A DNA stretch of 64,000 bases, taken from IMG/VR virus record IMGVR_UViG_3300045988_167206, positions 1 through 64,000 of that record, one strand, 5' to 3'. The translations under genes were made by a program, and so were the position numbers. This stretch comes from a virus. The notes beneath the pieces are model-generated. The model had not been told where the DNA came from. It saw only the letters and a program-made list of their open reading frames with translations, and searched no databases. Below are positions 16,283 through 57,269 of this stretch, piece after piece. Position 1 is the first letter of the stretch, and the number at the start of each line of letters is the position of its first letter.

Positions 16283-16295
16283 AGGAGATTTTGAA

Positions 16296-17084: not shown

Positions 17085-17135
17085 ATTGAAATGCATATAG
17101 TATATTGTTAAATAATTGTAAAAGGAGAACGAATA

Positions 17136-17774: not shown

Positions 17775-17777
17775 TTT

Positions 17778-31169: not shown

Positions 31170-34100
31170 ATGAAATATACCAATTACGTTGCATATCATG
31201 TTCATTCGTGGAATTCTCTTCTTGATAGTTGTACTGACTTTCGTGATTACGCAGATCGAGCAGCAGAATTAGGTCAGAAAGCATTAGCAATTACCGAACA
31301 TGGTAATATTTATAACTGGGTTGAAAAGAAAATGTATATTAACTCCAAAGGATTAAAATATATCCATGGAGTTGAGTGTTATCTTACAGCTTCACTAGAA
31401 GATAAAGTACGTGATAATTACCATACAATTCTTTTAGCGAAAAATTATAGAGGCGTTCAAGAGATTAATCTTCTGATTGATAAATCCACACAGCCGGATC
31501 ATCGCTATTATAAACCACGAATTACTTTTAATGAATTTTTTAATATTTCTGATAATGTAATTAAAATTTCTGCTTGTTTAGCTTCTCCATTGAATAAATA
31601 TCCTAATGATATTGGCAAATCGATTCAGGAACAAACATTTGAATTGAATAAAGAAATGGAAGAGAAAATTCAAGAAATTGAATGTTTAAAACAAGATAAG
31701 AAAAAGGAAGCTGAATGGATTAAGGAATATGATGAGGATCCAACGCCGCCATGGTACTACAACGGAACACCACATGAAGTATGGACAGACTATTTAGATA
31801 AAAAAATATTTTCGTATCGTCAAAGTTACGAAGAAAAAATAAACACCGTAAAAGAAATAAATGATTCGTCAAGAAAAATATTTTATAAATTACTTAACGC
31901 ATATGATTATTATGAAATTCAGCCGCATGATTCTCCAGAGCAGAAAAGATATAATGAATTCCTTTATCAAGCATCATTGCAAACCGGAGTACCTTTAATT
32001 GCCGGAACAGATACACATAGCATCAATTCATATAAAGCACAATGTCGTAGTATTCTTCAGAAAGCAAAAAAGATTGAATATGCTGATGAAGACAAATTTG
32101 ATCTTACATATAAGAGCTATAAAGAGCTTGTAAAAATGTTTCGAAAACAAGGTTGTAATATTCCTTTTGAAATTATTTTGGAAGCTATAGAAGAAACAAA
32201 TAGAATGGCAGATTCTATTGAAGATTTTATACTTGATACTTCTATAAAATATCCAAAAGCATACGACAATGAAGAAGAAGTTTTAAAAAAACGTATTCTT
32301 AGAATGCTTAAAGAGAAAGTTGATGCCGGAATTATTGATAAAAAGAAGATTCCAGAATATAAAAAGAGAATCGCAGAAGAAATGCGTGTTTTCAAAAAAA
32401 TTAATATGGTTGGTTTCATGCTTTTTATGTCTGAACTTGTTTGTTGGTGTTGGGATAATGGAATCCCAGTTGGTCCATGTAGAGGATCTGTAGGTGGTTC
32501 CGAGATTGCTTACATTACAGATATTATTGATGTAGACCCTATTGTATGGAACACAATTTTCTCACGATTTGCCAATGAAGATCGAGAAGAAGTTGGAGAT
32601 ATTGACCTTGATATTTCTCCTGATCAGAGAGAATTAGTATACAACCATATTATTGAATCATTTGGATATGATAAAACTGCGTATATCCTTGCTATCGGAA
32701 CAATATCTGATAAAGGTACCATTGATGAAATTGGTCGTGCTTTAAATATTCCACTTGATGAAGTTGCAAAAATCAAAGAATTATATAGCTCTTACAAGGA
32801 TTCAATTGATAATACTGCAAAACGTATTAAGGATATTGAAGGCAGAAATGATTTTGAAGAAATTAGGAATGCTGCAAAAGATTCTGAATTATATGGATTA
32901 AGAAGGGATTACGAAAATAAACTATCAGAACATAAAAACGCTCTTAAGAACATGAATAATTTAAAAGAAAATCAGTATAGAGAAGTATTTTATTATTTTG
33001 ATGGATTAAACGGAACCCCAATTTCACAATCAATTCATCCAGCTGGTATTGTTGTATCACCAGTAACGCTTCCGGATAATTATGGTACATTCTGGAGTGA
33101 CGGGAAAAGAATCCTCTGTATCAATATGGAAGAGATTCATGATGGTGCCGGTCTTGTAAAATACGATCTCCTTGGATTAAAGAACTTGCAGATTATTCGT
33201 AAGTGTTATGAGTATGTAGGAAAACCATACCCAAGATCACACCAGATTAACTGGAAAGATAAAAAAGTGTGGGATGATATTATTACTTCTCCTGCCGGGA
33301 TATTTCAGTTCGAGTCGCCATATGCGTTCGAAATGCTCAAAAATTACAAACCTCAATGTGTCAATGACTTATCTATGGTTAATGCATCATTAAGACCTTC
33401 TGGTGCATCATATAGAGATCGATTATTGGCAGGAGAAACAAACAAGAATCCATCACCTTTGATCGATGAGTTACTAAAGGATAATAGAGGATTTCTTATT
33501 TTCCAGGAAGATACAATTAAATTCCTTCAGAATATATGTGGGTTGAGCGGATCTGAGGCTGATAATGTAAGGCGAGCTATTGGACGTAAACAGATGGATC
33601 GACTTCAGAAAGCTCTTCCAAGCATTTTGGAAGGATATTGTAAAATGTCTCCGCAGCCGAAAGAAATTGCAGAACAAGAAGCAAAGACATTTTTACAGAT
33701 TATTGAGGACAGTGCAAACTATCAGTTCGGATTTAATCATTCGACAGGCTATTCAATGATTGGTTATATGTGTGCGTTTTGCAGATTTTATTATCCGGAA
33801 GAGTTCATAGCTGCTTATCTGAACTGTGCAAGCAATACAGACGATATTGTAATGGGGACAGAACTGGCAAAAATTAAACATATAACTATGAATAATATTA
33901 AATTCAGAAAGTCTGGACCAGAGTATACAGTAGATAAAAAGAACCATGCTTTATATAAAGGAATTGCTTCAATTAAATTCTGTAACGCTCAGATTGCAAC
34001 AGAGTTACTTAATTTATCTGATAATACCTATAAAACTTTTGTTGGTGTTCTAGCTGATGTTCATTCAAAAACATCGGTAAACTCCAGGCAGTTAACTATT

Positions 34101-34679
34101 CTTATGGGATTAAACTTTTTTTCAGAATTTGGTAATAATAAATATCTTATGCAGGTATCTGAGTTATATGATAAATTTGCTACATGCAAGATTATTAGTA
34201 AGAAGAAGATGGAAGAACTTGGATTATCAGAATATCTCATGAAAAAGTACGCCGGAAGAGAGACGGCTTCACAGTATAGAGAACTTGATAACAATGGACT
34301 TATCACAGAATTGTCATCAAGACTTGAAGATAAATCAATGTCTGTTGTGGATCAGGTTAAATTTGAAAAAGAATATCTGCAGTATGTAGTTTATACGAAT
34401 CCAAAAGTAAATAAAAGTTTTTATATTGTTACAGAGTATAAAACTTTTAAAGAAGCAAGAAAACCATATTGTACTTTACATAATATCAAGACTGGAGAAG
34501 ACATTAAGACTCGTGTGATCCAGGTTAAAGTATACGAGGATAACCCATTTGGAGAATATTCCGTATTGAAAGTAGATCATTTTGATCAGAAACATAAAAA
34601 GAAATGTGTAAATGGAACATGGCAGGAGACAGAAGAATTAGAAGATATCTTAAATGATTACGAGGTAATTAAAAAATAA
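31170..34679 (+). CDS. dnaE: DNA polymerase III alpha-type (DnaE-family) replicative polymerase
   Basis: PHP motifs HVHS and AITEHGN, palm motif PCRGSVGGSEIAY, catalytic DIDLDIS, finger motif IHPAGIVVSP. 1169 aa. Confidence 0.9.
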   Translation: MKYTNYVAYHVHSWNSLLDSCTDFRDYADRAAELGQKALAITEHGNIYNWVEKKMYINSKGLKYIHGVECYLTASLEDKVRDNYHTILLAKNYRGVQEINLLIDKSTQPDHRYYKPRITFNEFFNISDNVIKISACLASPLNKYPNDIGKSIQEQTFELNKEMEEKIQEIECLKQDKKKEAEWIKEYDEDPTPPWYYNGTPHEVWTDYLDKKIFSYRQSYEEKINTVKEINDSSRKIFYKLLNAYDYYEIQPHDSPEQKRYNEFLYQASLQTGVPLIAGTDTHSINSYKAQCRSILQKAKKIEYADEDKFDLTYKSYKELVKMFRKQGCNIPFEIILEAIEETNRMADSIEDFILDTSIKYPKAYDNEEEVLKKRILRMLKEKVDAGIIDKKKIPEYKKRIAEEMRVFKKINMVGFMLFMSELVCWCWDNGIPVGPCRGSVGGSEIAYITDIIDVDPIVWNTIFSRFANEDREEVGDIDLDISPDQRELVYNHIIESFGYDKTAYILAIGTISDKGTIDEIGRALNIPLDEVAKIKELYSSYKDSIDNTAKRIKDIEGRNDFEEIRNAAKDSELYGLRRDYENKLSEHKNALKNMNNLKENQYREVFYYFDGLNGTPISQSIHPAGIVVSPVTLPDNYGTFWSDGKRILCINMEEIHDGAGLVKYDLLGLKNLQIIRKCYEYVGKPYPRSHQINWKDKKVWDDIITSPAGIFQFESPYAFEMLKNYKPQCVNDLSMVNASLRPSGASYRDRLLAGETNKNPSPLIDELLKDNRGFLIFQEDTIKFLQNICGLSGSEADNVRRAIGRKQMDRLQKALPSILEGYCKMSPQPKEIAEQEAKTFLQIIEDSANYQFGFNHSTGYSMIGYMCAFCRFYYPEEFIAAYLNCASNTDDIVMGTELAKIKHITMNNIKFRKSGPEYTVDKKNHALYKGIASIKFCNAQIATELLNLSDNTYKTFVGVLADVHSKTSVNSRQLTILMGLNFFSEFGNNKYLMQVSELYDKFATCKIISKKKMEELGLSEYLMKKYAGRETASQYRELDNNGLITELSSRLEDKSMSVVDQVKFEKEYLQYVVYTNPKVNKSFYIVTEYKTFKEARKPYCTLHNIKTGEDIKTRVIQVKVYEDNPFGEYSVLKVDHFDQKHKKKCVNGTWQETEELEDILNDYEVIKK

Positions 34680-37795: not shown

Positions 37796-38006
37796 TAATA
37801 TTTATTATTGTAGAAACGCTAATAACACATGTGAAAAAAGAGACACTTGCTTAAGATATCTTAATGCAGCAGATAATCCAACAGCTACATTATTTAAATG
37901 TGCATGCACATCAAATAATCAATATTTATTATACATTAATAAATCAAAAGAAACGGAGAGTGAAGATGGAAAAGAATCCGGAGATGACACAGAATCAACA
38001 GAATAA
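37788..38006 (+). CDS. Small Cys-rich hypothetical protein
   Basis: 72-aa ORF with an ATGTATGA overlap with the upstream gene. Its 3' end overlaps the kinase start by about 40 nt. Confidence 0.35.
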   Translation: MYDNIYYCRNANNTCEKRDTCLRYLNAADNPTATLFKCACTSNNQYLLYINKSKETESEDGKESGDDTESTE

Positions 38007-38565
38007 TCTTCCTGTAAAGTTTCTTGTTGTTGGCAGAACTGCTTCTGGAAAATCTTCAATTGTAAGAGAAGTATGTAAGAAACTTGAATTAAAACAGGTA
38101 AAAAGTCTAACAACAAGACCGCCACGAGATGTAGAGCTGAATAATCCTGATTCTGATCATTACTTTGTTACAGACGAAGAATTTGAATCTGAAAGAGACA
38201 AAGGATTTGTAGCTTACACTGAAATAAATGATTATAAATATGCTACAACGGTTGATGAGTTTGATAGATCAGATATTTATGTTATCGACCCAAAAGGTAT
38301 AGAATATCTTAAACAAACATGTGGTGATAAATATAAATTTGTCGAGATTTATATTCGAGTTCCATTTATAACTGCGATAAATAGATTTATTGAACGTGGT
38401 GGTATAGAGAGTGAATTTAAGGCAAGATTCAATCAGGAAAATTTACAATTTAAAGAATATGAAAAGAAACAAGGATTTGATTATCACGTATTAAATGATC
38501 AGGCATTAGAAGATGCGGTTGAAAAAGTATGCGAGATAATCAAAAAAAATAATTTGATAATGTAA
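37966..38565 (+). CDS. Guanylate-kinase-like nucleoside monophosphate kinase
   Basis: P-loop GRTASGKSS plus the guanylate-kinase hallmark TTRPPR..D..HYFV..EEF. The start was moved to ATG 37966 (RBS aaACGGAGAGtgaag). Confidence 0.7.
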   Translation: MEKNPEMTQNQQNNLPVKFLVVGRTASGKSSIVREVCKKLELKQVKSLTTRPPRDVELNNPDSDHYFVTDEEFESERDKGFVAYTEINDYKYATTVDEFDRSDIYVIDPKGIEYLKQTCGDKYKFVEIYIRVPFITAINRFIERGGIESEFKARFNQENLQFKEYEKKQGFDYHVLNDQALEDAVEKVCEIIKKNNLIM

Positions 38566-38590: not shown

Positions 38591-40861
38591 ATGAAAACAA
38601 AGGAATGGCTTGGAGAAAATAACACGCTTGGATTAGATATTTGGAAAAATAAATATCAGTACAATAATGAAACATTTGACGAATGGGTTGAGAGAATTTC
38701 TGCAGGAAATAAAGATATTGCTAAATTGATTAAAGAAAAGAAGTTTCTTTTTGGCGGGAGAATCTTAGCAAATAGAGGGCTAGAGAATAAAGGTAGAAAA
38801 ATTAGTCTTTCTAATTGCTATGTAATTGCTCCACCAGAAGATAATATTGAAAGTATCTTTGATTGTGCAAAAAAACTCGCTCGCACATATAGTTATGGTG
38901 GTGGCTGCGGAGTAGATATTAGCAAACTCTCTCCAAGAGGAGCAAGAGTTAATAATGCAGCAAAAGAAACAACAGGCTCTGTATCATTCATGGATTTATA
39001 TTCAATGGTAACAGGTTTAATCGGGCAGAGTGGACGTAGAGGTGCATTAATGCTTAGTATTTCTTGTGAACATCCGGATCTTGAAGAATTCATAGAAATC
39101 AAATCAGATCTTGATAGAGTTACTAAAGCAAATATTTCAATTCGTATTACAGATAAATTTATGGCCGCCGTAAGAAATAAACAGCCATTTGAATTATCTT
39201 TTACAAGAATTGAGACTGGAGAAACAATCACTAAAACAGTTGATGCATATTCAATCTTTCATAAGATGTGCGAAATGAACTGGGATTATGCAGAACCTGG
39301 AATGCTGTTTTGGGACAGAATTAATAACTGGAACTTACTTAGTTGTGATGATGAGTTTGAATATGCAGGGACAAATCCATGTGCAGAAGAACCTTTGCCA
39401 GCAGGCGGGTCGTGCCTTCTCGGTAGTATCAACTTATCAGAATTTGTAAAAGATAATAAAACGTTTGATTTCGATTCTTTTAGAGAATGTGTTGATAAAG
39501 CAGTAATTGCTTTAAATGAAGTATTAGATGAAGGGTTGCCACTCCACCCATTAAAGGAGCAGAGAGAATCTGTATATAATTGGAGACAGATTGGATTAGG
39601 AATTTTTGGCCTTGCAGATATGCTGATAAAAATGGAAATTAGATATGGTAGCGTTGAATCAATTAATTTATGTAATATGATCGGACATCTGATGGCTAAT
39701 CAGGCATTAAAAACATCTGCGTTACTTTCGAAAGAATATGGTCCATATCCTAAATATGATCCAGATGCAGTTGAAGGATCGGCATATTATAGTCTAAATG
39801 CTCTTGACGATACAAAAGATTTAATTAAAGCTTTTGGTCTTCGTAATTCTCAGCTTCTGACAATCGCTCCAACTGGATCACTTTCAACAATGTTTGGTGT
39901 GTCCGGTGGCATTGAACCTATTTTTGCAAATTACTATACAAGAAAGACGGAATCTTTAAAAGGACATGATGAATATTATAAAGTATATACTCCAATTGTA
40001 AAAGAATATATGGATGTACATTCAATTACAGATGATAAAAAATTACCAGATTTCTTTATTACCGCACAGACATTAGATTATAAACAGAGAATAACTATGC
40101 AAGGTATTTGGCAACGTCATATTGATGCATCTATCAGTTCTACTGTTAATTTACCAAATACAGCAACTATAGAAGACGTAGAAAATCTTTATATATACGC
40201 ATGGGATTTTGGATTAAAAGGAGTAACAATTTTTAGAGATGGTTGTAAAAGGGCTGGAATTTTAACTACTGATACTAAGAAAAAAGAAGAAGATAATAAT
40301 ACAAATTCAAAAAAATACACTCTTGAAAGAGGAATGATTATCAAAGCTGATGATAATTGCATTGGTAAGAAACGTACACTAAAGACTGGATGTGGAACTC
40401 TTCACTGTGAAGCATTCTTTGATCCTGAGACTGGACAGCTTTTAGAGACATATTTCAGTAAAGGTTCGTCAGGTGGATGTAATAATTTTATGATTGGATT
40501 ATCAAGAGCAATTTCGCTTTGTGCAAGAGGCGGTATTGATATTTATTCAATTGTTGATCAGCTTTTATCTTCTGGAACTTGCCCTTCTTACGCAGTAAGA
40601 AAAGCAACAAAACATGATACATCTAAAGGAAGTAGTTGTCCAGTAGCAATTGGCAATGCTTTACTTGATATGTATAAAGAAATTCAAAATGAATTAATCG
40701 ATTCTGATGATGGCGAAATATCTGAATTAATAGCAGAAAATAATAATTCTATATCAAAAGATAGTATTCCTAAGCCTAAATGCCCACAGTGTGGTGGAGA
40801 ATTAATTTTTGAAGGTGGATGTAATACCTGCAAATCTTGTGGCTGGAGTAAATGTGATTAA
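38591..40861 (+). CDS. nrdJ: Class II (adenosylcobalamin-dependent) ribonucleotide reductase
   Basis: Single 756-aa chain with the active-site region TNPCAEEPL. The C-terminal Cys-rich tail CPQCGG..GGCNTCKSCGWSKC is typical of monomeric NrdJ. Confidence 0.85.
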   Translation: MKTKEWLGENNTLGLDIWKNKYQYNNETFDEWVERISAGNKDIAKLIKEKKFLFGGRILANRGLENKGRKISLSNCYVIAPPEDNIESIFDCAKKLARTYSYGGGCGVDISKLSPRGARVNNAAKETTGSVSFMDLYSMVTGLIGQSGRRGALMLSISCEHPDLEEFIEIKSDLDRVTKANISIRITDKFMAAVRNKQPFELSFTRIETGETITKTVDAYSIFHKMCEMNWDYAEPGMLFWDRINNWNLLSCDDEFEYAGTNPCAEEPLPAGGSCLLGSINLSEFVKDNKTFDFDSFRECVDKAVIALNEVLDEGLPLHPLKEQRESVYNWRQIGLGIFGLADMLIKMEIRYGSVESINLCNMIGHLMANQALKTSALLSKEYGPYPKYDPDAVEGSAYYSLNALDDTKDLIKAFGLRNSQLLTIAPTGSLSTMFGVSGGIEPIFANYYTRKTESLKGHDEYYKVYTPIVKEYMDVHSITDDKKLPDFFITAQTLDYKQRITMQGIWQRHIDASISSTVNLPNTATIEDVENLYIYAWDFGLKGVTIFRDGCKRAGILTTDTKKKEEDNNTNSKKYTLERGMIIKADDNCIGKKRTLKTGCGTLHCEAFFDPETGQLLETYFSKGSSGGCNNFMIGLSRAISLCARGGIDIYSIVDQLLSSGTCPSYAVRKATKHDTSKGSSCPVAIGNALLDMYKEIQNELIDSDDGEISELIAENNNSISKDSIPKPKCPQCGGELIFEGGCNTCKSCGWSKCD

Positions 40862-45461: not shown

Positions 45462-45613
45462 TTTATTATTAGTAAATAAGGAATTAAATAATCGAAAAGG
45501 ACACGCTTCATATAGACATAAAGGTGCTTATGGTCCAGCAGATAATTATTCAAAACATGATAAGCAGCAAGTTGAAGATGGAATACAGCAAATTAAAGAA
45601 TGGGAGAATGAAG

Positions 45614-46165
45614 ATGAAAGAAGAGAAAAAGAAGGTTCTGATTGTAATTGATGTGCAGAATGATTTTGTGACAGGAGTTCTTGGAACACCGGAAGCACAA
45701 GCTATTGTACCAAATGTGAAAAAGAAATTTGATGAATATAAGAATAATAAGAGCTATGTAATTCTTACAAAGGATACTCATCATTCAGATTACGCAGATA
45801 CTTCAGAGGGCAGAAAACTTCCTGAACATTGTATGTATGGTACTAAAGGTTGGGAAATTATTGATGAACTTGATTATAAAAATCTCGATAGTTTTATGGT
45901 GTGTTGTAAACCTACATTTGGACTTGATAACTGGGATTGGGAAGAAATATTTAATACTACAGATGATTCTTTATTAGATATTGAAATTATTGGAGTATGC
46001 ACAGATATCTGTGTGATTACAAATGCTCTTCTTATTAAAACTTATTATCCAGAGGCAAAAATCACAGTGGATGCATCATGTTGCGCAGGATCAACACTGG
46101 AAAAGCATAAAGCGGCTCTTGATGTGATGGAAAGTTGCCAGATTAATGTAACCAATAGAAATTAA
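45614..46165 (+). CDS. Isochorismatase-family cysteine hydrolase (nicotinamidase PncA-like)
   Basis: VIDVQNDFV (catalytic Asp), a conserved Lys region, and the catalytic Cys in GVCTDICV. The start was moved to ATG 45614 (RBS tGGGAGaatgaag). Confidence 0.7.
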   Translation: MKEEKKKVLIVIDVQNDFVTGVLGTPEAQAIVPNVKKKFDEYKNNKSYVILTKDTHHSDYADTSEGRKLPEHCMYGTKGWEIIDELDYKNLDSFMVCCKPTFGLDNWDWEEIFNTTDDSLLDIEIIGVCTDICVITNALLIKTYYPEAKITVDASCCAGSTLEKHKAALDVMESCQINVTNRN

Positions 46166-46173
46166 ATTAAACA

Positions 46174-46797
46174 ATGGAGGAAATTAAAATGATGAATAAT
46201 TTTATGAATGGAATGTTTGGGAAAATTGGTAGTGGAATGTGTAAGTTATCCATGAGCGGTAATATTGCAGTAAAAACTTCCAATGGATATAAGAGCTACA
46301 ATGTTAAATCCGGAAAGCTCACAAACTGTGGCAATTTCGTATTTCCTGGAGTAGATGAAAACTTCTTCTTCGTCATTCCAACAAATAAGGTAGCTAAAGG
46401 AGACATCATCCTTGTAAATGGCAAGCCAAAATGTGTTATTGAGGCAGACAAAACCAAGATCACTGTAATTAATTATGAAGATTCAACAATTGAAACAATT
46501 TTACCAGAACGTCACGTATTTATGGGTAATACATATTTTTATGGAAAAATTGTTTCAATGTTTGGAAGTAATTTTGGCAAAGACAAAAATAGTGCAAATA
46601 AAATTTTTAAATATATGATGATGACTCAGATGATGGGCGGATCTTCTACATCTGGCATTGGGATAGATAGTAATCCAATGAATGCCATGATGCCATTTAT
46701 GATGATGAATGGCAATATTGGAGACATGTTTGATGGCATGCTTGATTTTGATATGGATGACACAGATGAAGAGGTTGATTTAGAGGAGGATGAATAA
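46174..46797 (+). CDS. Met-rich hypothetical protein with acidic tail
   Basis: 207-aa ORF with runs such as MMMTQMMGG and MMPFMMMNG. C-terminus DMDDTDEEVDLEEDE. Confidence 0.5.
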   Translation: MEEIKMMNNFMNGMFGKIGSGMCKLSMSGNIAVKTSNGYKSYNVKSGKLTNCGNFVFPGVDENFFFVIPTNKVAKGDIILVNGKPKCVIEADKTKITVINYEDSTIETILPERHVFMGNTYFYGKIVSMFGSNFGKDKNSANKIFKYMMMTQMMGGSSTSGIGIDSNPMNAMMPFMMMNGNIGDMFDGMLDFDMDDTDEEVDLEEDE

Positions 46798-46799
46798 TT

Positions 46800-47696
46800 A
46801 TGGGATGTGGAAATTGGGATACTAAAAGTTTTGTATCTTATGCATCATCAAGAGGATTTGATACTGATACGCGAGGAGTAATCAGAGGAGATTATTCTAA
46901 TCAGGAAATGTTTAAAGCTAAAAAACTTGATCCTGCGCTTGATCCTAAAAATGCAATTAGAGAATGCTGCGATAGTGAAGAACATCCGAACACCTTGCCG
47001 GTTATTCTTGCTTTAGATGTTACTGGATCAATGGGGCAAACAGCAGTAGAAATTGCAAAAAAGCTTAATGAAATTATGACAAAATTATATGAACAAATCA
47101 ATGATGTGGAATTTATGATTATGGGTATTGGTGATCTGGCATATGATGTCTATCCAATTCAGGCCTCACAGTTTGAATCGGATATTAGAATTGCAGAGCA
47201 GCTTGACAAAATTTATTTTGAATTTGGTGGCGGTAGCAATCCATATGAATCCTATACCGCAGCTTGGTATTTTGCTTCTCGTCATACAGAACTCGATTGT
47301 TGGAATAGAGGCAAAAAAGGTGTAATTATCACGATTGGAGATGAACAGCTTAATCCATATCTTCCAATATCAGGCGAATATAATGGTTTGTCTACTGCTA
47401 CAGGTGATAATCTTCAATCAAATGTCGAGACAAAAGATTTATATCTGGAAGTTGCTAAAAAATTTGATGTTTATCATATTAATGTGGACCATCGTAATTA
47501 TTATAGTACTGAACAAGAAAATATTAAAAAGTCTTTTATGGAATATCTTGATGCAGATCATTTTAGAACAATTAATAACATTGATGACATTACAGATGAA
47601 ATTGTAAAAATTGTTACAGCTGCAAATAACGAACAAACAGTAGTACTACCGATAATTTCTGCAAAAACCGATGAATCGGGAGATATTGTTTGGTAA
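46800..47696 (+). CDS. vWA-domain protein (second one in the window)
   Basis: MIDAS-type motif LALDVTGSMG, with later ITIGDEQ. Confidence 0.6.
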   Translation: MGCGNWDTKSFVSYASSRGFDTDTRGVIRGDYSNQEMFKAKKLDPALDPKNAIRECCDSEEHPNTLPVILALDVTGSMGQTAVEIAKKLNEIMTKLYEQINDVEFMIMGIGDLAYDVYPIQASQFESDIRIAEQLDKIYFEFGGGSNPYESYTAAWYFASRHTELDCWNRGKKGVIITIGDEQLNPYLPISGEYNGLSTATGDNLQSNVETKDLYLEVAKKFDVYHINVDHRNYYSTEQENIKKSFMEYLDADHFRTINNIDDITDEIVKIVTAANNEQTVVLPIISAKTDESGDIVW

Positions 47697-47705
47697 GGAG
47701 AAAAT

Positions 47706-48809
47706 ATGAAAGATATAAAAATTGTCATTGGAGCAAATTTCGGTGACGAGGGAAAGGGTAAACTTACAGATTATTATACTAAAGATAAAAATAATTGTAT
47801 TGTTGTTTGCTCAAATGGAGGAGCGCAGAGAGGACATACAGTATTGAAACCTAATGGGATACGTCATGTTTTTCATCATTTTGGTTCCGGGACATTAAAT
47901 GGAGCCGATACATATTTACCAGAGGATTTTATTTTAAATCCTCTGGTGTTTAAAGAAGAATGGGATGAATTAAAAAAAATGGGATTTGAACCGCATGTAT
48001 ATGCCAATAAAAAGTATATGATTACAAATCCTCTTGATATGATGGCTAATCAAATAATTGAAAGAAATCGCAAAGATAACAAACATGGTAGCTGCGGAAT
48101 GGGAATCTATAATACCATTCAAAGACATAAAAATGACATTATAGATTATTTGGATTCCTGGGCATATTATATGAATATGTTCAGAAGGATGAAAATTACT
48201 TTATCAGAAGAAGAAGCTGAATTATTCGACCAATATAAAAAAGGAAAAGAGATTCGTCTTCATTATTTTAAAGATTTGGATTTTATGATGGAACATATAA
48301 AAATTGTTCAGGATGATCAAATATTAAATAAATATGACACAATAGTATTCGAAAATGGCCAAGGATTGCTTCTCGATCAGAATAATATGGAATATTATCC
48401 ACATCTTACTCCGTCAAATACTGGTATAAAAAATCCTTCCAGGATTATAAAAGCAGTAAATTGGGACGCTGAAATTAACGTAGAGGCATGCTATGTAACC
48501 CGTTCATATATGACAAGACATGGAGCAGGTGCATTCCCAACTGAATGTAATAAGACAGAGATAAATACAGATATAACAGACTTAACTAATGTACCTAATC
48601 CACATCAGGACGTTTTAAGATATGGAACACTTGATGTAAATGAATTATACGATAGATGCCAAAGGGATGTAAAAGTCGCTGGCATTCCATGTCATAAAGT
48701 GTTAGCTATAACTCAAGTAAATGCATGTAAATCAATTATTCCATATATTTATAAAAAATTCAAAAAAAATAATTGGAATATAAAATTTTTTCATTTGGAG
48801 GAGAATTAA
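47706..48809 (+). CDS. Short adenylosuccinate-synthetase-family enzyme (PurA/PurZ-like)
   Basis: P-loop GDEGKGK, GGAQRGHT (versus PurA GGHNAGHT), GSCGMGI (versus TTGRGIGP), FENGQGLLLD..YPHLTPSNT (versus FEGAQGTLLD..YPYVTSSNT), TRHGAGAFPTE. Only 367 aa versus about 430 for cellular PurA, and the Asp-binding GATTGRxRR segment is not recognisable. Confidence 0.8.
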   Translation: MKDIKIVIGANFGDEGKGKLTDYYTKDKNNCIVVCSNGGAQRGHTVLKPNGIRHVFHHFGSGTLNGADTYLPEDFILNPLVFKEEWDELKKMGFEPHVYANKKYMITNPLDMMANQIIERNRKDNKHGSCGMGIYNTIQRHKNDIIDYLDSWAYYMNMFRRMKITLSEEEAELFDQYKKGKEIRLHYFKDLDFMMEHIKIVQDDQILNKYDTIVFENGQGLLLDQNNMEYYPHLTPSNTGIKNPSRIIKAVNWDAEINVEACYVTRSYMTRHGAGAFPTECNKTEINTDITDLTNVPNPHQDVLRYGTLDVNELYDRCQRDVKVAGIPCHKVLAITQVNACKSIIPYIYKKFKKNNWNIKFFHLEEN

Positions 48810-49063
48810 TGTATTTACATGATAGACTTATGGATTTATCTCAAAAAACAGAATGTATGGATGTAATATTACATAATGAGTTTAAAAATGATTATCCTTA
48901 TCGAGAAAATTTGCATGATGTAACATTTTTGATTGGCGAACTTATAGATATTTTACAACAATCAACTCTTACATATGATGATCTCATTCAATTAGAACAA
49001 CAATATAACGAAAGGTATGACAGCAAAATTAAACAAGAAAAAGATAATGAAATTATTTGGTAA
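48809..49063 (+). CDS. Hypothetical protein
   Basis: The ATG overlaps the upstream stop (TAATG). RBS tGGAGGAGaat. Confidence 0.4.
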   Translation: MYLHDRLMDLSQKTECMDVILHNEFKNDYPYRENLHDVTFLIGELIDILQQSTLTYDDLIQLEQQYNERYDSKIKQEKDNEIIW

Positions 49064-49075
49064 AGGAGTCTACAT

Positions 49076-49894
49076 ATGATTAAGATTAATAATAATGTAT
49101 TTAAGCCAGAATATTTTCCGGATGGAACGATGAAATTAAAACTTGATGGAGATATAAATTATTGGATTTATTGGCTTTATGATTCAGAAGATGAATTACT
49201 CCAGCTTTATTACATTATGAATTATATTGATGAAAATCATGCACAATCAAGTACATCATTATTTATGCCATATATTCCAAATGCTAGATTTGACCGAACT
49301 AAAAATTATTATGAAATTTTTACCTTAAAATATTTCGCTAAATTTATTAATTATCTTCATTTTGATGAAGTGATAGTATTTGATCCTCATTCACATGTAT
49401 CCGAAGCGTTAATTGATAGGCTTTGCATTCATAACCCTTTAAATTCAATTATTAAAACCATTAAAAAGATTACAAATACATCAAAAGAGTTACTTTTATT
49501 TTTTCCAGATGAAGGAAGCACAAAAAGATATGAGAATGTAATTAAAACATATTCAGAATCTCCATATACTTTCGGTATTAAAAACAGGGATTGGGTCACA
49601 GGAGAGATTAAAGGATTATCTGTAAACGGACAAGTTGATCAGATCAAAGATAGAGACGTACTTATTATTGATGATATTTGCAGCAAAGGTGGCACGTTTT
49701 ATCACAGTGCTAAAAAACTTAAAGAACTTGGCGCGAATAAGATTTATCTTTATGTAAGTCATTGTGAAAATACAATTTATGCTGGAGAATTGCTTAAAGA
49801 TAACGGATTGATTGAAAAAATTTTCACTACAGATAGCATTTTAACAGATCTTACAAGTCCTAAAATTGAATTAGTAGAGGAGTGGAGAAAATAA
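49076..49894 (+). CDS. Ribose-phosphate pyrophosphokinase (Prs)-family protein
   Basis: FPDGT.. (Prs FSDGE), MPYIPNARFDR (Prs IPYFGYARQDR), VFDPHS (DLHA), FPDEGS (SPDIGG), and the PRPP-loop LIIDDICSKGGT. 272 aa. Confidence 0.75.
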   Translation: MIKINNNVFKPEYFPDGTMKLKLDGDINYWIYWLYDSEDELLQLYYIMNYIDENHAQSSTSLFMPYIPNARFDRTKNYYEIFTLKYFAKFINYLHFDEVIVFDPHSHVSEALIDRLCIHNPLNSIIKTIKKITNTSKELLLFFPDEGSTKRYENVIKTYSESPYTFGIKNRDWVTGEIKGLSVNGQVDQIKDRDVLIIDDICSKGGTFYHSAKKLKELGANKIYLYVSHCENTIYAGELLKDNGLIEKIFTTDSILTDLTSPKIELVEEWRK

Positions 49895-50262
49895 TGAAAC
49901 CAATTATTAGTCCTTGGACGATTTATTTTGCCAGTAGAGTAGATTCTTTGAAAATTCTTGCTGGGTGTATTTTAGTATGTTGCATAATTGCGATATGCAT
50001 AGCATTCATTGAGGGCGATATAGACTACGGATCAGTATTAACTCATAGAAGTTTCATGAAGAAATGTGTAATAATATCTATTATCAGTGCGGTTGTTTTG
50101 GTAATCACGCCAAGTACAGAAACAGTTTATACAATGGTAGTAGCAAATGAAATTACACCAGACAATATTCAAGCATTTGGTAAAACTGGTAAGAATGTAG
50201 TTGATTACATTACAGATCAGATTGACAAAATTATAAATAAAGATGACGAAAAGGAGAAGTAG
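49894..50262 (+). CDS. Small membrane protein (2 TM)
   Basis: TAATG-coupled to the Prs-like gene. Hydrophobic helices ILAGCILVCCIIAICIAFI and VIISIISAVVLVI. Confidence 0.45.
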   Translation: MKPIISPWTIYFASRVDSLKILAGCILVCCIIAICIAFIEGDIDYGSVLTHRSFMKKCVIISIISAVVLVITPSTETVYTMVVANEITPDNIQAFGKTGKNVVDYITDQIDKIINKDDEKEK

Positions 50263-50265
50263 AAT

Positions 50266-51732
50266 ATGTACGATACATTAGCGATTTTATTATGCGACAC
50301 TTATAAAACATGCCATAACCGAATGTTTCCTAATAAACTTACAAAATTAGTATCTTATTGGACTCCAAGAAGATCTATGTTGAAATATCAAGATCATATG
50401 GTATTCTTTGGACTTCAAGCATTTATTAAAAAGTTTCTGATCGAAGATTTTAATAAAAATTTCTTTGATTTACCAGAAAGTGCAGTAATGTATGAATACT
50501 CCTACACAATGAATACGCAGTTAAAACCAGGAGATTACGATATTGGGCCAATCATTGAATTACATAGATTAGGATTTCTTCCTATTCAGATTCGTGCATT
50601 ACCGGAAGGAACACTGGTTCCAATGGGAGTTCCTTGTATTGAAATCTTTAATACAAAACCAGAATTTGCATGGGTAGTCCAGTGGATTGAGTGTATTCTG
50701 CAGGTGGAACTTTGGAAACCATGTTGTCATGCGACAATCGGGCATATGTATAGGGAATCTGCAAATTATTGGTATAAAAGAACAGTTGATAATGTAAAAC
50801 CATCAATGGCCGCCTCTGACTTTGGAATGAGAGGAATGTCTTGTATGGAAGAAGCAGAAAGATGCTCCGCTGCTTGGTTGCTTTCGTTTGATAAAACATC
50901 CACAATTCCAGCAATCGATTATATTTATAATTATTATTCTACGAACTGTCAAAAACTCAATATTGGACTTGGAGCAGTAAGTACAGAACATTCTGTAATG
51001 GCTTCAAATTTTGCAGTAGACGGTGACGAAATTACATTTGTAAAACGATTACTTACAGAATTATATCCAAATACTTCATTTAGTATGGTTTCTGATACCT
51101 ATGATTATTGGAATATGATCGATAATATTCTTCCGGCCTGCAAAGAAGAAATTATGAATCACAATGGTAAATTGCTTGTAAGACCAGATTCTGGAAATAT
51201 GGTTGATATCTCAGTAAAGACAGTAAAAAAACTTTGGGATATATTTGGTGGGACTATTAATAGTAAAGGTTATAAAGTACTCGATCCACATATTGGTATT
51301 ATTTATGGCGATGGTTGTAGCTTATACAATGTGAACGAGATTTGGAGTTTACTCGCAGATGAAAGATTTGCAGCAAATAATATTGTATTTGGTGTCGGAG
51401 CCTTTTGTTTCTCGGCAATTGTTGAGGGTGACGGTCATATGGCAGTAGTTACCAGAGATACATTTGGAATTGCAATGAAAGCCACATATGGTGTCGTGGA
51501 TGAAAAACCTATTATGATTTATAAAGATCCCAAAACAGATACTTCTCATCTTAAAAAATCCCATAAAGGTTGTTGCAAAATTTATCGTGATCAGAGCGGA
51601 GAATTAATCTGTGAAGATGGTTTTGATAAGCCACAGCATGGAGAGTTGCATATTGTATATTGCAATGGCGATATTATTGAAGAAGAAACATTTGAGGATA
51701 TTCGTAGAAGATTAAATACTCAGGAGAATTAA
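50266..51732 (+). CDS. Nicotinamide phosphoribosyltransferase (Nampt/NadV)-family protein
   Basis: N-terminal LLCDTYKTCH..SYWTPRR (NadV: L.TDSYK.SH...Y.E.R), FGMRGMS..EEAE, VRPDSGN, IIYGDG. 488 aa. Confidence 0.85.
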   Translation: MYDTLAILLCDTYKTCHNRMFPNKLTKLVSYWTPRRSMLKYQDHMVFFGLQAFIKKFLIEDFNKNFFDLPESAVMYEYSYTMNTQLKPGDYDIGPIIELHRLGFLPIQIRALPEGTLVPMGVPCIEIFNTKPEFAWVVQWIECILQVELWKPCCHATIGHMYRESANYWYKRTVDNVKPSMAASDFGMRGMSCMEEAERCSAAWLLSFDKTSTIPAIDYIYNYYSTNCQKLNIGLGAVSTEHSVMASNFAVDGDEITFVKRLLTELYPNTSFSMVSDTYDYWNMIDNILPACKEEIMNHNGKLLVRPDSGNMVDISVKTVKKLWDIFGGTINSKGYKVLDPHIGIIYGDGCSLYNVNEIWSLLADERFAANNIVFGVGAFCFSAIVEGDGHMAVVTRDTFGIAMKATYGVVDEKPIMIYKDPKTDTSHLKKSHKGCCKIYRDQSGELICEDGFDKPQHGELHIVYCNGDIIEEETFEDIRRRLNTQEN

Positions 51733-51734
51733 AT

Positions 51735-52172
51735 ATGAATAAATCAATGATTTATAAAAGAAATGTATATATGAGCAGAGACTCAAAAGATGTTGAAGAA
51801 ATGTTCAGTGAAATTTTAAATAATTATGAAGAAAAAGAAGAAACGATTAAGTATCTTCGGGAAGAAAATAAAAGAATTAAAGATGAAAAATATAAGGATT
51901 CTGAACTAACTTCTATGAAAAGAGAACTTGAAGGTGTAAAAGGAGACTTATATAGAGGATTTCCGATTTCAATAAAAGAAAAAAAAGCTATCGAAGAATG
52001 GCGATTAAAACATGAAGCTGAGGCTCACGGAAGAAAAACACTTGAACAAAGGTTATCGGCACACGGAGCAATTGGCGGCAGTTACACTTATGTTTTCACG
52101 CCGACAAGCATTGGTGTTGTTGGCGAGTTTAAGTGTAGTTGTGGCGAATCATTTACATTTCAAGATATTTAA
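51735..52172 (+). CDS. Hypothetical protein (coiled-coil N-terminus, Cys pair at C-terminus)
   Basis: 145-aa ORF tightly packed between the Nampt-like and nucleotidyltransferase genes. Confidence 0.5.
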   Translation: MNKSMIYKRNVYMSRDSKDVEEMFSEILNNYEEKEETIKYLREENKRIKDEKYKDSELTSMKRELEGVKGDLYRGFPISIKEKKAIEEWRLKHEAEAHGRKTLEQRLSAHGAIGGSYTYVFTPTSIGVVGEFKCSCGESFTFQDI

Positions 52173-52184
52173 TAAGGGGTATTT

Positions 52185-52952
52185 ATGACATTAAAAGAGA
52201 TTAAAGAAAAAATAAGGACAGATCCGGCATACGGGTTTCTTCGTACAGATCCTCATCTTGGAGATAATATCTGTCTTCTTTATTTAAGCGGTAGTTATGC
52301 TTACGGAACAAATGTTGAAGATAGTGATATTGATCTTCGTGGGGTTACTTTAAATAGCAAAGAAGAAATTCTTCTTGGACAGGATTTTAGAAGTGTTACA
52401 GATGGAAGTACCGATACAACAATTTATTCATTTAAAAGAATGGTCAAAATGCTTTGTAGTAATACTCCAACTGCTATTGAGATATTTGGTCTTAAACCGG
52501 AACATATTTTATACGCTAATTCAATAGGAAAAGAATTGTTGACTAAGCAAAATATGTTTCTTACAAAAAGAGTCGCTTCTGCTTTCAAAGGATATATTCA
52601 GGCTAGTTTAAAATTGCTTGAATCAGAAAAATGCCTAAATGATAAAACTATGATGTCCAAATATATGGTTCATCCATTTCGATTGTATTTTATGATTATT
52701 GATATTTTAACTGATCGGACAATAACGACATATCGTGAAGAAGAACACGAAATACTTATGGATATTCGTAATGGAAAATGGCTTGAAAATAATAAACCTT
52801 CTAATGATTATATGAATTTTATAAGAAATTATAACAGAGTGATTCCATTTCTTCTTAAAGAAAAAAGTAATCTTCCAGAAGATTTAAATTTGTGTAACAT
52901 TGATGATTATGTGATAGCAGTACATGAAAAAATTGTCAAAGGAGAAATTTAA
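52185..52952 (+). CDS. Pol-beta-superfamily nucleotidyltransferase (RlaP/YcgL-like)
   Basis: GS-x(10)-DxD signature YLSGSYAYGTNVEDSDIDLRG. Confidence 0.65.
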   Translation: MTLKEIKEKIRTDPAYGFLRTDPHLGDNICLLYLSGSYAYGTNVEDSDIDLRGVTLNSKEEILLGQDFRSVTDGSTDTTIYSFKRMVKMLCSNTPTAIEIFGLKPEHILYANSIGKELLTKQNMFLTKRVASAFKGYIQASLKLLESEKCLNDKTMMSKYMVHPFRLYFMIIDILTDRTITTYREEEHEILMDIRNGKWLENNKPSNDYMNFIRNYNRVIPFLLKEKSNLPEDLNLCNIDDYVIAVHEKIVKGEI

Positions 52953-53045
52953 TGATTAAAGTAATCAATGGAAGCATTTTAAATGCTAAAACAGATTTTA
53001 TTATTATTACAAGGAAAACTCAGTACCAAAAGAGGAGGAATAAAT

Positions 53046-53402
53046 ATGGATATTATTTATTTTGAGCTTAATAACTGGTTTTGTGGTAGAGATTATCCAA
53101 ATGATGAGCCATTTATTTCATGGATGAGTAATGATTTACAATTAAAATTCGATAACGAAGATTGGATTATTGAAAATAAATTATGTGTAGTAAAAACATT
53201 TGTAGACATGTCTTGTAATTTCTGTATTACTGCCACAAAGGAATGGGTAGAAGAGAATTGTCCTAAATTACTTACAGAATATAATGAGTTTTTAAGATAT
53301 CCTGATAAATATGGAGATACTTATGGAAAATTTGGAACATTATTTTTGGAATATTGTGTAGAAAATATTGGGTTGGAAGATAGAGAAGAAGATGATATTT
53401 AA
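53046..53402 (+). CDS. Hypothetical protein
   Basis: ATG at 53046 after RBS AGAGGAGGAataaat. Confidence 0.5.
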   Translation: MDIIYFELNNWFCGRDYPNDEPFISWMSNDLQLKFDNEDWIIENKLCVVKTFVDMSCNFCITATKEWVEENCPKLLTEYNEFLRYPDKYGDTYGKFGTLFLEYCVENIGLEDREEDDI

Positions 53403-53418
53403 TGAAAGGATATAAGAT

Positions 53419-54174
53419 ATGAATTATTATTTTGATGCTAAAAAAGTAAAAGATGATTGCGTACAGTGGATTAGAGATTATTTTACAAAGAATGGACTAG
53501 ATTGCAATGCAATTGTTGGAATTTCTGGAGGAAAAGATTCTTCTGTTGTGGCTGCACTTTGCGCAGAAGCACTTGGAAAAGATAGGGTTATTGGTATTCT
53601 AATGCCACAGGGAATACAGTCTGATATTGGATATGCTCAAGAACTTTGTGCCGAACTTGATATTGAGAATTATACTATTAATATTGAATCTGCTTATAAA
53701 GCAATTAGAAATCAAGTAAAAGAGACTCTTAATGGGCATTGGAGCCAGCAGAGTGCCATTAATTTACCGGCAAGATTAAGAATGAGCATATTATATGCTT
53801 ATGCACAGACATTAAATGGAAGAGTGGCAAATACATGTAATCTTAGTGAAGATTGGGTAGGATATGCAACACGATACGGAGACTCTGCAGGAGATTTTAG
53901 TCCGCTTGCAAACTTTACAGTTGAAGAAGTAAAAGCTATTGGTAGAGAATTAGGTCTGAATGAGCTTTTAATTGAAAAAGTGCCAACAGATGGTCTTTGC
54001 GGTAAAACAGACGAAGATAACCTTGGTTTTACATATGCAGTTCTTGATAGATATATTAGAACTGGTAAAATTGACGATTTGGAAACCAAGAAGAAAATTG
54101 ATTATCTTCATGAAAAAAATGCGTTTAAGTTAAGATCAATGCCTACATTCAAATATCCACCTTGTCCATTTTAA
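53419..54174 (+). CDS. nadE: NH3-dependent NAD+ synthetase
   Basis: PP-loop GISGGKDSSVVAAL, with downstream ..NLSE..GY.T.YGD and DE..LG..Y..LD motifs. 251 aa. Confidence 0.85.
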   Translation: MNYYFDAKKVKDDCVQWIRDYFTKNGLDCNAIVGISGGKDSSVVAALCAEALGKDRVIGILMPQGIQSDIGYAQELCAELDIENYTINIESAYKAIRNQVKETLNGHWSQQSAINLPARLRMSILYAYAQTLNGRVANTCNLSEDWVGYATRYGDSAGDFSPLANFTVEEVKAIGRELGLNELLIEKVPTDGLCGKTDEDNLGFTYAVLDRYIRTGKIDDLETKKKIDYLHEKNAFKLRSMPTFKYPPCPF

Positions 54175-54671: not shown

Positions 54672-54806
54672 ATGAATAAAGAAGATATTGTAGTATTATT
54701 TATTATATTAATTTTTATTGGATTCTTTTGTATGTATTTAATGGCGGCACGTATTTGGAAAGATATAGATAAAGAGATAGAAGAAGACAAACAAAGGAGA
54801 ATACAT

Positions 54807-55325
54807 ATGGCAAAACGAGTAGCAAAGTTCGAAAAAGTATCAAAACAGCAGTTTATTCAGGACTGGCAGCATGAATTTATGGGATCTGAAGAATGGGCTG
54901 GATTTATCTATGATCGAATTAAATTACCAGCAAGAGCAACAAAATTTTCAGCAGGATATGATTTCTTTGCACCAATGGACTTTACACTGAACCCGGGAGA
55001 AACTGTCAAGATCCCTACCGGTATCCGTTGTGGAATCAATACAGACTGGGTATTAATGATTTATCCTCGAAGCGGCCTTGGCTTTAAATATAGAGAAATG
55101 CTTGCAAATACAGTTGGAGTAGTAGATAGCGATTATTTTTATTCAGACAATGAAGGCCATATTTTTATCAAAGTTGTAAATGCCGGAGATAAAACACTTC
55201 ATATTGAAAGCGGGAATGGTTTTGCACAGGGGATTTTTACTGAATATGGTATCACAGAAGATGATCATGTTGAAGCAGAACGAAACGGTGGATTCGGAAG
55301 TACAGATAAAAAGGAACTTAAATAA
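54807..55325 (+). CDS. dut: dUTP diphosphatase (trimeric dUTPase)
   Basis: Motifs AGYDFFAP, IYPRSG, GVVDSDY and RNGGFGSTD. Strong RBS AAAGGAGAatacat before ATG 54807. The ORF also continues in frame upstream to 54672 (see findings). Confidence 0.85.
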   Translation: MAKRVAKFEKVSKQQFIQDWQHEFMGSEEWAGFIYDRIKLPARATKFSAGYDFFAPMDFTLNPGETVKIPTGIRCGINTDWVLMIYPRSGLGFKYREMLANTVGVVDSDYFYSDNEGHIFIKVVNAGDKTLHIESGNGFAQGIFTEYGITEDDHVEAERNGGFGSTDKKELK

Positions 55326-56096: not shown

Positions 56097-57269
56097 ATGG
56101 GAAAAGATTTAAAAGGTAAAGAACTTGGAAAGGGGATTACACAAAGAAAAGATGGTAGATATCAAGCAAGATTTACTAATCGTTTTGGAAAAAGACAGAC
56201 GATATATGGTAAAACACTTAAAGAAATTAAAAATGCATTACATGAAGAAACTATAAAAGATTTACGAGAAGAAAATGTAAAAAATATTAAATTAACAGTA
56301 GATGAATGGTTTGAAATATGGTCCAAAACATATAAGGAAACTACAATTAAAAAAACTACATTTGCTAAAAATAAAAGAAATTATCAACATCAAATTAAAC
56401 CAGTTATAGGGAATAAAAAAGTCTCCGAAGTAACATCATTTGATATTGTTTCTTTAACCAGTAACATGGCAAAAAAATATACAAAAGGTTTTATAAGAGA
56501 TGTACATGGTATTTTATATGATATGTTCGAACAAGCGTACATAAATGAGCTATGCAAAAAAAATCCTGTTTATGGAACTAAATTTGGTGGAAAACCAAAT
56601 AGAAAAATACAAGCATTAAATATTGAAGATCAAAGTGAATTTTTAAAATCAAGTAAAGATAATTTTTATTATAATGCGTTTGTTGTACAATTAAATACCG
56701 GTTTAAGACTTGGAGAAATCATAGGTTTATGTGTTGAAGATATTGATTTAAAAAATAATATGCTTCATGTTAGACATAATATGATTATGGTTAGGAAAGA
56801 TGGAGATATTCCATCTTATTTAGAAATAAGTACACCAAAAACGAATGCTGGAATTAGAGATGTTCCAATAAATAAAGCATGTAGAAAAGCTTTGATCAAT
56901 CAACTTGAAATGCGATCTAATGTTATTTTTCCACATAAATTTCATCAATTAGTATTTTTTAGTAAAGATAATTTTTTACCAATAAGCCGATCAACATATT
57001 ATCGAAACATTAATAGTGTTGTTAAGAAAATTAATATTAAAAGAGCAAAAAATAATCAACCTCTTATAAAACAGTTTGGATCACATACTTTTAGACATAC
57101 ATTTGCAACGAGATGTTTTGAAGCTGGTATTCCACCTAAAACAGTACAGGTTTTACTAGGACATGCCAGCATACAAATGACATTAGATATTTATACATCT
57201 GTAATGCAAGATAAACGGGTTGAAGACTTAAAAAAATTTGACACTTTGATGGACACGTTATGTTTATAA
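56097..57269 (+). CDS. int: Tyrosine integrase (phage-type site-specific recombinase)
   Basis: N-terminal arm-binding-type region (KDGRYQARFTNRFGKRQTIYGKT), Arg I TGLRLGE, HTFRHTFAT (HxxR), GHASIQMTLDIYTSV (His..Tyr). Confidence 0.9.
   Translation: MGKDLKGKELGKGITQRKDGRYQARFTNRFGKRQTIYGKTLKEIKNALHEETIKDLREENVKNIKLTVDEWFEIWSKTYKETTIKKTTFAKNKRNYQHQIKPVIGNKKVSEVTSFDIVSLTSNMAKKYTKGFIRDVHGILYDMFEQAYINELCKKNPVYGTKFGGKPNRKIQALNIEDQSEFLKSSKDNFYYNAFVVQLNTGLRLGEIIGLCVEDIDLKNNMLHVRHNMIMVRKDGDIPSYLEISTPKTNAGIRDVPINKACRKALINQLEMRSNVIFPHKFHQLVFFSKDNFLPISRSTYYRNINSVVKKINIKRAKNNQPLIKQFGSHTFRHTFATRCFEAGIPPKTVQVLLGHASIQMTLDIYTSVMQDKRVEDLKKFDTLMDTLCL

Follow-up and report, generated by a model that had tools for sequence, protein, structure and literature searches.

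A short homologue of adenylosuccinate synthetase (PurA) is encoded at positions 47,706 to 48,809 of the virus record IMGVR_UViG_3300045988_167206 (IMG/VR), of which we analyzed positions 1 to 64,000, the 64,000-nucleotide stretch called the window throughout. On sequence grounds this PurA-like protein belongs to a third clade within the adenylosuccinate synthetase superfamily, one that is carried by phages and is neither PurA nor PurZ/PurZ0, the enzymes of the 2-aminoadenine (Z) pathway. New here is its company: the gene is directly preceded by a vWA/MIDAS gene with a conserved Met-Gly N-terminus, and this in turn by a gene for a Met/Gly-rich or J-domain/kinase-like protein. The reading that we favor, and consider somewhat probable from residue conservation and gene order, is that of a nucleoside triphosphate (NTP)-dependent purine-C6 ligase that uses an amine other than aspartate and that, together with the partner proteins, constitutes an accessory module of the phage.

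The open reading frame (ORF) begins with an ATG that has an AGGAG 6-7 nt upstream, and its 367-amino-acid (aa) translation contains the PurA motifs GDEGKGK (residues 13-19), GHT (43-45) and FENGQGLLLD (215-224), together with GSCGMGI (128-134) and AFPTE (276-280); TTGRxRR is missing from it. The original prediction, made from the letters of the DNA without database searches, had described this ORF, the first four of these motifs, the missing TTGRxRR and the retained P-loop Asp (Asp14 in GDEGKGK) as they are, and only its PFPTE has to be corrected to AFPTE; the protein that it had judged to be about 60 aa shorter than cellular PurA is 65 aa shorter than that of E. coli (432 aa). The match to PF00709 spans only profile positions 1-285 of 416. 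Homologues fall into more than 5000 clusters at 90% identity, and 2087 clusters at 50% identity match with E <1e-30; the PF00709 match and these thousands of homologous clusters argue that the gene is real and under selection. Members of the clade are 26-48% identical to the window protein.

A serine in place of PurA Asp13 defines the PurZ group and is present in 147 of 147 phage PurZ/PurZ0 proteins (PMC12884076). It is likewise found in all six references used for comparison (PurZ of phiVC8, S-2L and Acinetobacter phage pB23; PurZ0 of Litotes, Benry and Galactica), whereas the window protein and all 98 clade members compared have Asp at this position; PurZ/PurZ0 moreover have Ile for Thr271, which the clade keeps as Thr. 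The NCBIfam PurZ model NF038379 gives the window protein 39.1 bits against a cutoff of 300, and in tblastn searches against the window E. coli PurA matched at 1e-16, phiVC8 PurZ at E 0.015 and PurZ0 not at all. A sequence search of the PDB returned bacterial PurA (1e-15) and no PurZ, and the AlphaFold2 (AF2) model (pLDDT 81.5) matched the bacterial PurA 4m9d best (E 6.8e-15, TM score 0.66), with weaker matches to PurZ (2e-11) and PurZ0 (5e-11); the protein resembles bacterial PurA more than PurZ, both in sequence and in fold. PurZ/PurZ0 (PDB 6FM1, 7ODX, 7VF6) are likewise phage-encoded, shortened members of the superfamily, yet they share only 16-19% identity with the window protein and form a separate clade. 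The original prediction had proposed a phylogeny against PurA, PurZ and PurZ0 as a check on its Z-base reading. In a neighbor-joining (distance) tree of 61 sequences with 100 bootstraps, from a set without archaeal PurA, the window clade was split off in 100/100 replicates, outside a PurZ + PurZ0 split that was itself recovered in 100/100.

The surroundings of the gene differ as well. PurZ/PurZ0 genes adjoin those for DatZ/MazZ or for DutZ/DmtZ and DpoZ, and the window gene has none of these neighbors: tblastn of DatZ, MazZ, DpoZ, DutZ/DmtZ and PrimPol against the 64-kb window returned nothing below E 0.1, and Pfam detected no HD or MazG domain in the approximately 56 window ORFs scanned, in line with the earlier remark that neither DatZ nor MazZ is evident there. 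Among phage genomes at large, tblastn with DatZ matched 94 phage records whose organism tally includes no Mycobacterium or Rhizobium phage, whereas approximately 210 genomes of Mycobacterium and Rhizobium phages carry the PurA-like clade; MazZ of S-2L returned S-2L alone and is uninformative on other genomes. The family PHROG 1211 ('2-aminooxy adenylosuccinate synthetase') matches the window protein, PurZ, PurZ0 and the mycobacteriophage protein Bxz1 gp250, and its label is uninformative for the Z-base question because E. coli PurA matches the same model (2e-146).

The protein is, by the same kind of evidence, no canonical PurA (EC 6.3.4.4) either. It scores 103.7 bits with the PurA equivalog model NF002223 (cutoff 402) and 90.7 bits with TIGR00184 (cutoff 395.55), and it shares 23% identity with E. 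coli PurA (PF00709; PDB 1ade/1cg0), although the predicted model follows the same fold along the whole chain (TM score 0.62-0.66). We placed the 98 clade members on E. coli PurA numbering, with the roles of individual E. coli residues being those of the structural literature on PurA. The P-loop GDEGKG is common to both proteins, and G12, D13, K16, H41, E221, Q224 and T271 are conserved in 98/98 members and T239 and R143 in 96/98 each; the window equivalents D14, K17, H44, Q219, T235 and R140 are all present. In PurA, these residues serve the O6-phosphorylation of a 6-oxopurine nucleoside 5'-monophosphate by an NTP, with Asp13 as base and His41 as acid, and Arg143 is contributed by the other subunit of the dimer. 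Since this trans-acting arginine is retained, the PurA-like protein is probably a homodimer.

The ligands of the 5'-phosphate of inosine monophosphate (IMP) are also retained, but with Gln for N38 and Cys for T129 (92/98), next to an exchange of Q34 for Asn. The major departures lie elsewhere, in the aspartate loop and in the residues around it: V273 is replaced by His (98/98) and G298 by Asn (95/98), T300 by an aromatic residue and T301 by Gln (98/98), R303 is gone (98/98) and R305 has become Leu, Ile or Phe. Where PurA has its TTGRRR loop, the clade has N-P-[FYHW]-Q-[GD], and in the window protein N298-P-H-Q-D-V-L stands in place of the Thr300/Thr301/Arg303/Arg305 loop. The ungapped segments are NPHQDVLRYGTLD in the window protein and ATTGRRRRTGWLD in E. 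coli PurA. The motifs GSCG, TRHG and N-x-aromatic-Q constitute a clade signature, represented in the window protein by G128-S-C-G131, T270-R-H-G273 and N298-P-H-Q301. The guanine-specificity motif (N/T)KxD (Lys331, Asp333), TKxD in PurA and T[HCQ]xN/D in the clade, reads T-Q-V-N in the window protein, in a C-terminal part where the alignment is less reliable; at residue 331 the 98 members have 78 His and 17 Cys, and at residue 333 they have 58 Asn and 37 Asp.

What also separates the clade from PurA, besides its restriction to phages and prophages, is an obligate neighbor. The PurA-like gene is the last of a tightly packed three-gene cassette, separated by 9 nt from the gene for a 298-aa protein, which has its own Shine-Dalgarno sequence (GAGGAGG) and lies 2 nt behind the preceding gene. 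This partner had no match in Pfam, in PADLOC or, by single sequence or profile, in the PDB, and its vWA identity was revealed only by the predicted fold (AF2 pLDDT 71, pTM 0.74; integrin I-domain/vWA folds at E 7e-5). The MIDAS residues D73-x-T-G-S...T178-x-G-D-E are invariant in 20 divergent homologues. A vWA homologue was found directly upstream of the PurA-like gene, on the same strand, in every locus with upstream sequence (approximately 57), among them 8 metagenome contigs, IMG/VR contigs including distant ones, and 34 loci from bacterial assemblies (isolates and metagenome-assembled genomes), all of Lachnospiraceae, Eubacterium, Ruminococcus or other Clostridia. Among complete phage genomes the vWA protein has 219 matching records, 200 of them from Mycobacterium, 10 from Rhizobium and 6 from Vibrio phages, and the same phage groups, with hosts from three bacterial phyla, carry the PurA-like gene.

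The N-terminus of the vWA partner is conserved to an unusual degree: 52 of 54 distinct homologues, those of Bxz1, Vibrio and Rhizobium phages included, start with Met-Gly (MGxGxW), each of these ATG codons with a Shine-Dalgarno sequence 6-10 nt before it, and residues 1-4 of the vWA partner in the window are predicted by AF2 to be disordered. N-terminal Met is excised before Gly. A disordered N-terminus that is invariant at 30% overall identity suggests that a free N-terminal glycine may be functional in this protein.

The slot before the vWA gene is occupied by one of two kinds of genes. In Clostridia phages, Vibrio phage pv27 and a Rhizobium phage it encodes the Met/Gly-rich protein, which in Lachnospiraceae-type loci lies directly upstream of vWA with 62-97% identity and is better conserved there than the PurA-like protein of the same loci; its homologues include pv27 CDS0142 and EVB61_017 of the Rhizobium phage (hhalign probability 90%, E 1.5e-6). 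Elsewhere the slot holds a J-domain/kinase-like protein with an HPD motif (PF00226 at 1e-7 in locus L138; PF00069 at 8.7e-9 in Bxz1 gp247), whose kinase HxD motif often has another residue in the position of the catalytic Asp. In the window, translation of the Met/Gly-rich protein probably begins with the ATG at 46189, which follows a GGAGG. The listed ATG at 46174 is probably part of the ribosome-binding site (ATGGAGG), and a start at 46189 gives MMNNFMNG..., which is how homologues in the Vibrio and Rhizobium phages begin in similar form. In loci L047-L051, which have the J-domain/kinase-like gene in this slot, a relative of the Met/Gly-rich protein recurs downstream on the minus strand as one domain of an approximately 520-aa fusion protein with multiple zinc ribbons (e.g. 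L047 9534-11102).

The arrangement recurs in phages of very different hosts. In Vibrio phage pv27 (CDS0142-0145) and Rhizobium phage RHph_TM21B (EVB61_017-020), which infect Gram-negative hosts, the order Met/Gly-rich, vWA, PurA-like is the same at 34-39% identity, with different flanking genes and, in RHph_TM21B, an additional small gene that separates the first cassette gene from the second; the vWA homologues of the two are 37% and 35% identical, respectively, to that of the window. Approximately 200 complete genomes of mycobacteriophages contain the clade. In cluster C mycobacteriophage Bxz1, the 'PurA-like adenylosuccinate synthetase' gp250 is a basal member (27% identity) with the Asp-retaining P-loop. 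At 442 aa, gp250 is longer than the window protein; the vWA homologue gp248 (32%) lies upstream as in the window, with the small gp249 inserted, and the third gene is the J-domain/kinase-like gp247 where the window has the Met/Gly-rich protein. The literature that we searched reports no function for gp250, gp248 or gp247, and a scan of IMG/VR with P0187 gave no match. A known defense system was considered for the cassette and rejected, as PADLOC models matched none of its three proteins.

According to the favored reading, the PurA-like enzyme would, like PurA, activate C6 of IMP, guanosine monophosphate (GMP) or a deoxy form via a 6-phosphoryl purine nucleotide, but would pass the activated carbon to an amine that is not L-aspartate; this amine would either be small and neutral or be presented by the partner protein. 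The three cassette proteins would cooperate in this as an accessory host-takeover or counter-defense module of large phages, and not as a Z-genome pathway. The original prediction had named a 'novel purine-modifying ligase' as the fallback to PurZ/PurZ0, and this part of it gains from the retained O6-phosphorylation and IMP-binding residues, the replaced aspartate site and the obligate partner, a gene that the prediction had not noticed.

Several points weigh against a ligase of this kind. The alignment register in the 298-306 region is uncertain by one position, although the Arg303 and Arg305 equivalents are missing in either register, and one arginine of the loop survives in the window protein (R305, at the position of E. 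coli Arg306). Divergent aspartate loops also occur in PurZ and in short PurA proteins of archaea, which nevertheless use aspartate, so that the loss of Arg303 and Arg305 does not strictly disprove aspartate use. The C-terminal 80 residues align poorly, which makes the inference on the base of the NTP weak. The enzyme activity is a prediction across the whole clade, the link between the PurA-like and vWA proteins is one of genomic neighborhood, and the AF2 confidence for the vWA partner is moderate.

Of the other explanations, a direct aminase is unlikely, though it survives best. It would use ammonia or a small neutral amine such as glycine in one step and without a lyase, yielding AMP from IMP, or 2,6-diaminopurine or an N6-substituted nucleotide from GMP. 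The complete O6-phosphorylation machinery fits this, as does the exchange of the carboxylate-binding arginines for clade-invariant neutral polar residues (Asn298, Gln301, His273). An aminase leaves the strict pairing with vWA and the third gene unexplained, however; it comes without an amidotransferase or ammonia-channel partner, and it has no precedent in the superfamily.

We consider it quite unlikely that the gene encodes an ordinary auxiliary PurA that converts IMP and aspartate into adenylosuccinate and raises AMP/ATP, for instance for the NAD-rebuilding genes nearby. The protein has retained Asp, His and Gln of the catalytic site together with the ligands of the IMP phosphate, one Arg of the RRRR stretch survives, the nearest relatives in sequence and structure are bacterial PurA proteins, and genes of nucleotide and NAD metabolism surround the gene in the window phage and in its closest relative (locus L019). 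Against this stand the scores far below both equivalog cutoffs and the clade-wide replacement of Thr300, Thr301, Arg303 and Arg305 along with the altered TKxD motif. The NAD genes adjoin the cassette in the closest relative only, whereas the vWA partner is universal, and such an obligate partner is not explained for a housekeeping-type enzyme.

A more specific form of the favored non-aspartate ligase is a long shot. Because the enzyme normally takes the alpha-amine of aspartate and the carboxylate-binding arginines are lost, the N-terminal Gly amine of the vWA protein, freed by Met excision, might replace L-aspartate, and C6 of IMP or GMP would be joined to a protein N-terminus. Such N-terminal 'purinylation' would be a new post-translational modification of approximately 330 Da for IMP. 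Aided by the Met/Gly-rich or J-domain protein, the purinylated vWA protein would in turn affect a host target or defense system.

It is very unlikely that the protein is a non-enzymatic NTPase subunit, with the PurA fold serving as nucleotide switch in a vWA/co-chaperone-like complex that manipulates host proteins. The third gene encodes a J-domain and (pseudo)kinase protein in several lineages and a Gly/Met-rich one in others, and vWA/MIDAS domains usually mediate protein-protein contacts, all of which would suit a switch. Asp13, His41, Gln224, Thr239 and Arg143, however, serve only the chemistry of the purine substrate, and their invariance among members with no more than 26-48% identity to the window protein favors retained catalysis. 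Least of all, and hardly credible, is the Z-base reading of the original prediction, a PurZ/PurZ0 that condenses dGMP and aspartate for dZTP in a phage with a Z genome: a short phage-encoded PurA homologue, its PHROG 1211 match and a phage with a guanylate-kinase-like protein and its own polymerase speak for it, and the retained Asp14, the low PurZ model score, the distinct clade, the missing Z-pathway genes, a PHROG label that fits E. coli PurA equally well, a polymerase of DnaE type instead of family A and the lack of reported DatZ homologues in the clade-bearing Mycobacterium and Rhizobium phages speak against it.

The 'PurA-like' genes of cluster C mycobacteriophages were already known by annotation (PMC9476963). 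A recent PurZ phylogeny covers the PurA and PurZ groups only, and several hundred sequences lie outside both without discussion in the main text (PMC12884076). For the clade signature, the vWA partner and the function, our literature search found only genome announcements and PurZ papers. Two Asp-retaining members, those of Bxz1 (NC_004687.1; L011 5992-7320) and pv27 (OR413349.1; L010 6001-7113), are labeled '2-aminooxy adenylosuccinate synthetase' in their records (RefSeq for Bxz1), the name that annotation tools built on PHROG assign to true PurZ and to this clade alike. On clade members this label is likely a misannotation, since PHROG 1211 fits E. coli PurA equally well, and it could inflate counts of Z-genome phages. 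Short phage PurA homologues serve as a marker of Z genomes, and the thousands of members of the PurA-like clade, in phages of gut, rumen, soil and marine origin, are of a different kind; surveys of Z genomes should use the Asp/Ser position and the gene neighborhood as filters. An altered second-substrate site together with an obligate vWA partner, from mycobacteriophages to Clostridia prophages, makes the cassette a candidate for new nucleotide- or protein-modifying chemistry in phage-host conflict, for which Bxz1 on M. smegmatis and Vibrio phage pv27 are experimental systems at hand.

Table 1 Cassette genes and selected context genes of the window.
Feature	Position	Strand	Remarks
DnaE-type polymerase	31170-34679		
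Guanylate-kinase-like protein	37864-38565		PF00625
Ribonucleotide reductase (RNR) barrel + TSCPD	38591-40861		
Isochorismatase/nicotinamidase-like protein	45524-46165	+	NAD-rebuilding cluster
Met/Gly-rich protein, central beta-rich domain, acidic C-terminus	46174-46797	+	First of three cassette genes
vWA/MIDAS partner, 298 aa	46800-47696	+	PHROG 2971 (8e-69); no Pfam family; MGCGNW N-terminus
PurA-like protein, predicted ligase, 367 aa	47706-48809	+	PF00709 (4.6e-36); phage/prophage-restricted clade of the adenylosuccinate synthetase superfamily
Prs-like protein	49076-49894	+	PHROG 619; possibly Adps of NARP1
NAMPT/NAPRTase-family protein	50266-51732	+	Possibly Namat
NAD synthase NadE	53419-54174	+	

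Judged by its gene content, the window derives from a large temperate phage of gut Clostridia. It has structural and lysis genes (GH25/CHAP endolysin, baseplate and fiber proteins) and SPbeta-type replication genes, and its nearest genomic relative is a scaffold of Ruminococcus sp. AM36-2AA, which has 74% identity and shares the whole neighborhood. The guanylate-kinase-like, RNR and DnaE-type polymerase genes that the original prediction had cited as context were all found (Table 1). A scan for promoters and terminators gave fewer sites than in shuffled sequence and is uninformative on operon boundaries. The genes downstream of the cassette vary between loci (Gad1, DNA methyltransferases or, in the window, NAD genes), and the region resembles an accessory or anti-defense variable region. 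In loci L005, L006 and L008, the gene directly downstream (e.g. L005 11149-12036) encodes Gad1 (PF25705, anti-Gabija) in some and an N6/N4 DNA methyltransferase in others. In the window, a 96-aa ORF (48773-49063, plus strand) shares 37 nt with the end of the PurA-like gene; its conservation (43% identity) is limited to L019, and it lies outside the widespread cassette.

The NAD-rebuilding cluster around the cassette (45524-54174, plus strand) consists of the isochorismatase/nicotinamidase-like, Prs-like, NAMPT/NAPRTase-family and NadE genes of Table 1. It is shared with L019 only, and a link to it was rejected as a general explanation for the PurA-like gene on account of this restricted adjacency; the NARP papers make no mention of PurA. 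Elsewhere in the phage DNA lies a gene for an NAD-dependent DNA ligase (8386-10392). A dUTPase-domain protein (54672-55325, plus strand) has an N-terminal extension of approximately 80 aa, and tblastn gave no match between it and the DmtZ-DutZ fusion from the PurZ0 phage Litotes.

Further genes of the window, all on the plus strand, include a Ter-like stress cluster (13658-18521) with a P-type cation ATPase (13658-16282), a vWA-TerF-like protein (16233-17084; PF10138, 1e-59), TerD (17136-17774) and a PspA/IM30-like protein (17778-18521). An RNA ligase (23184-24101; PF09414) and an RlaP-type nucleotidyltransferase (52185-52952; PF10127) suggest a capacity for RNA repair, possibly against tRNA-cleaving defenses. 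The ORFs at 4799-5782, 7139-8035 and 56097-57269 comprise two tyrosine recombinases (PF00589), one of them with a Tn916-type DNA-binding domain, and one ORF with an MrpR N-terminal core-binding domain. Near 58 kb the coding strand switches, leading into the lysis and tail genes.

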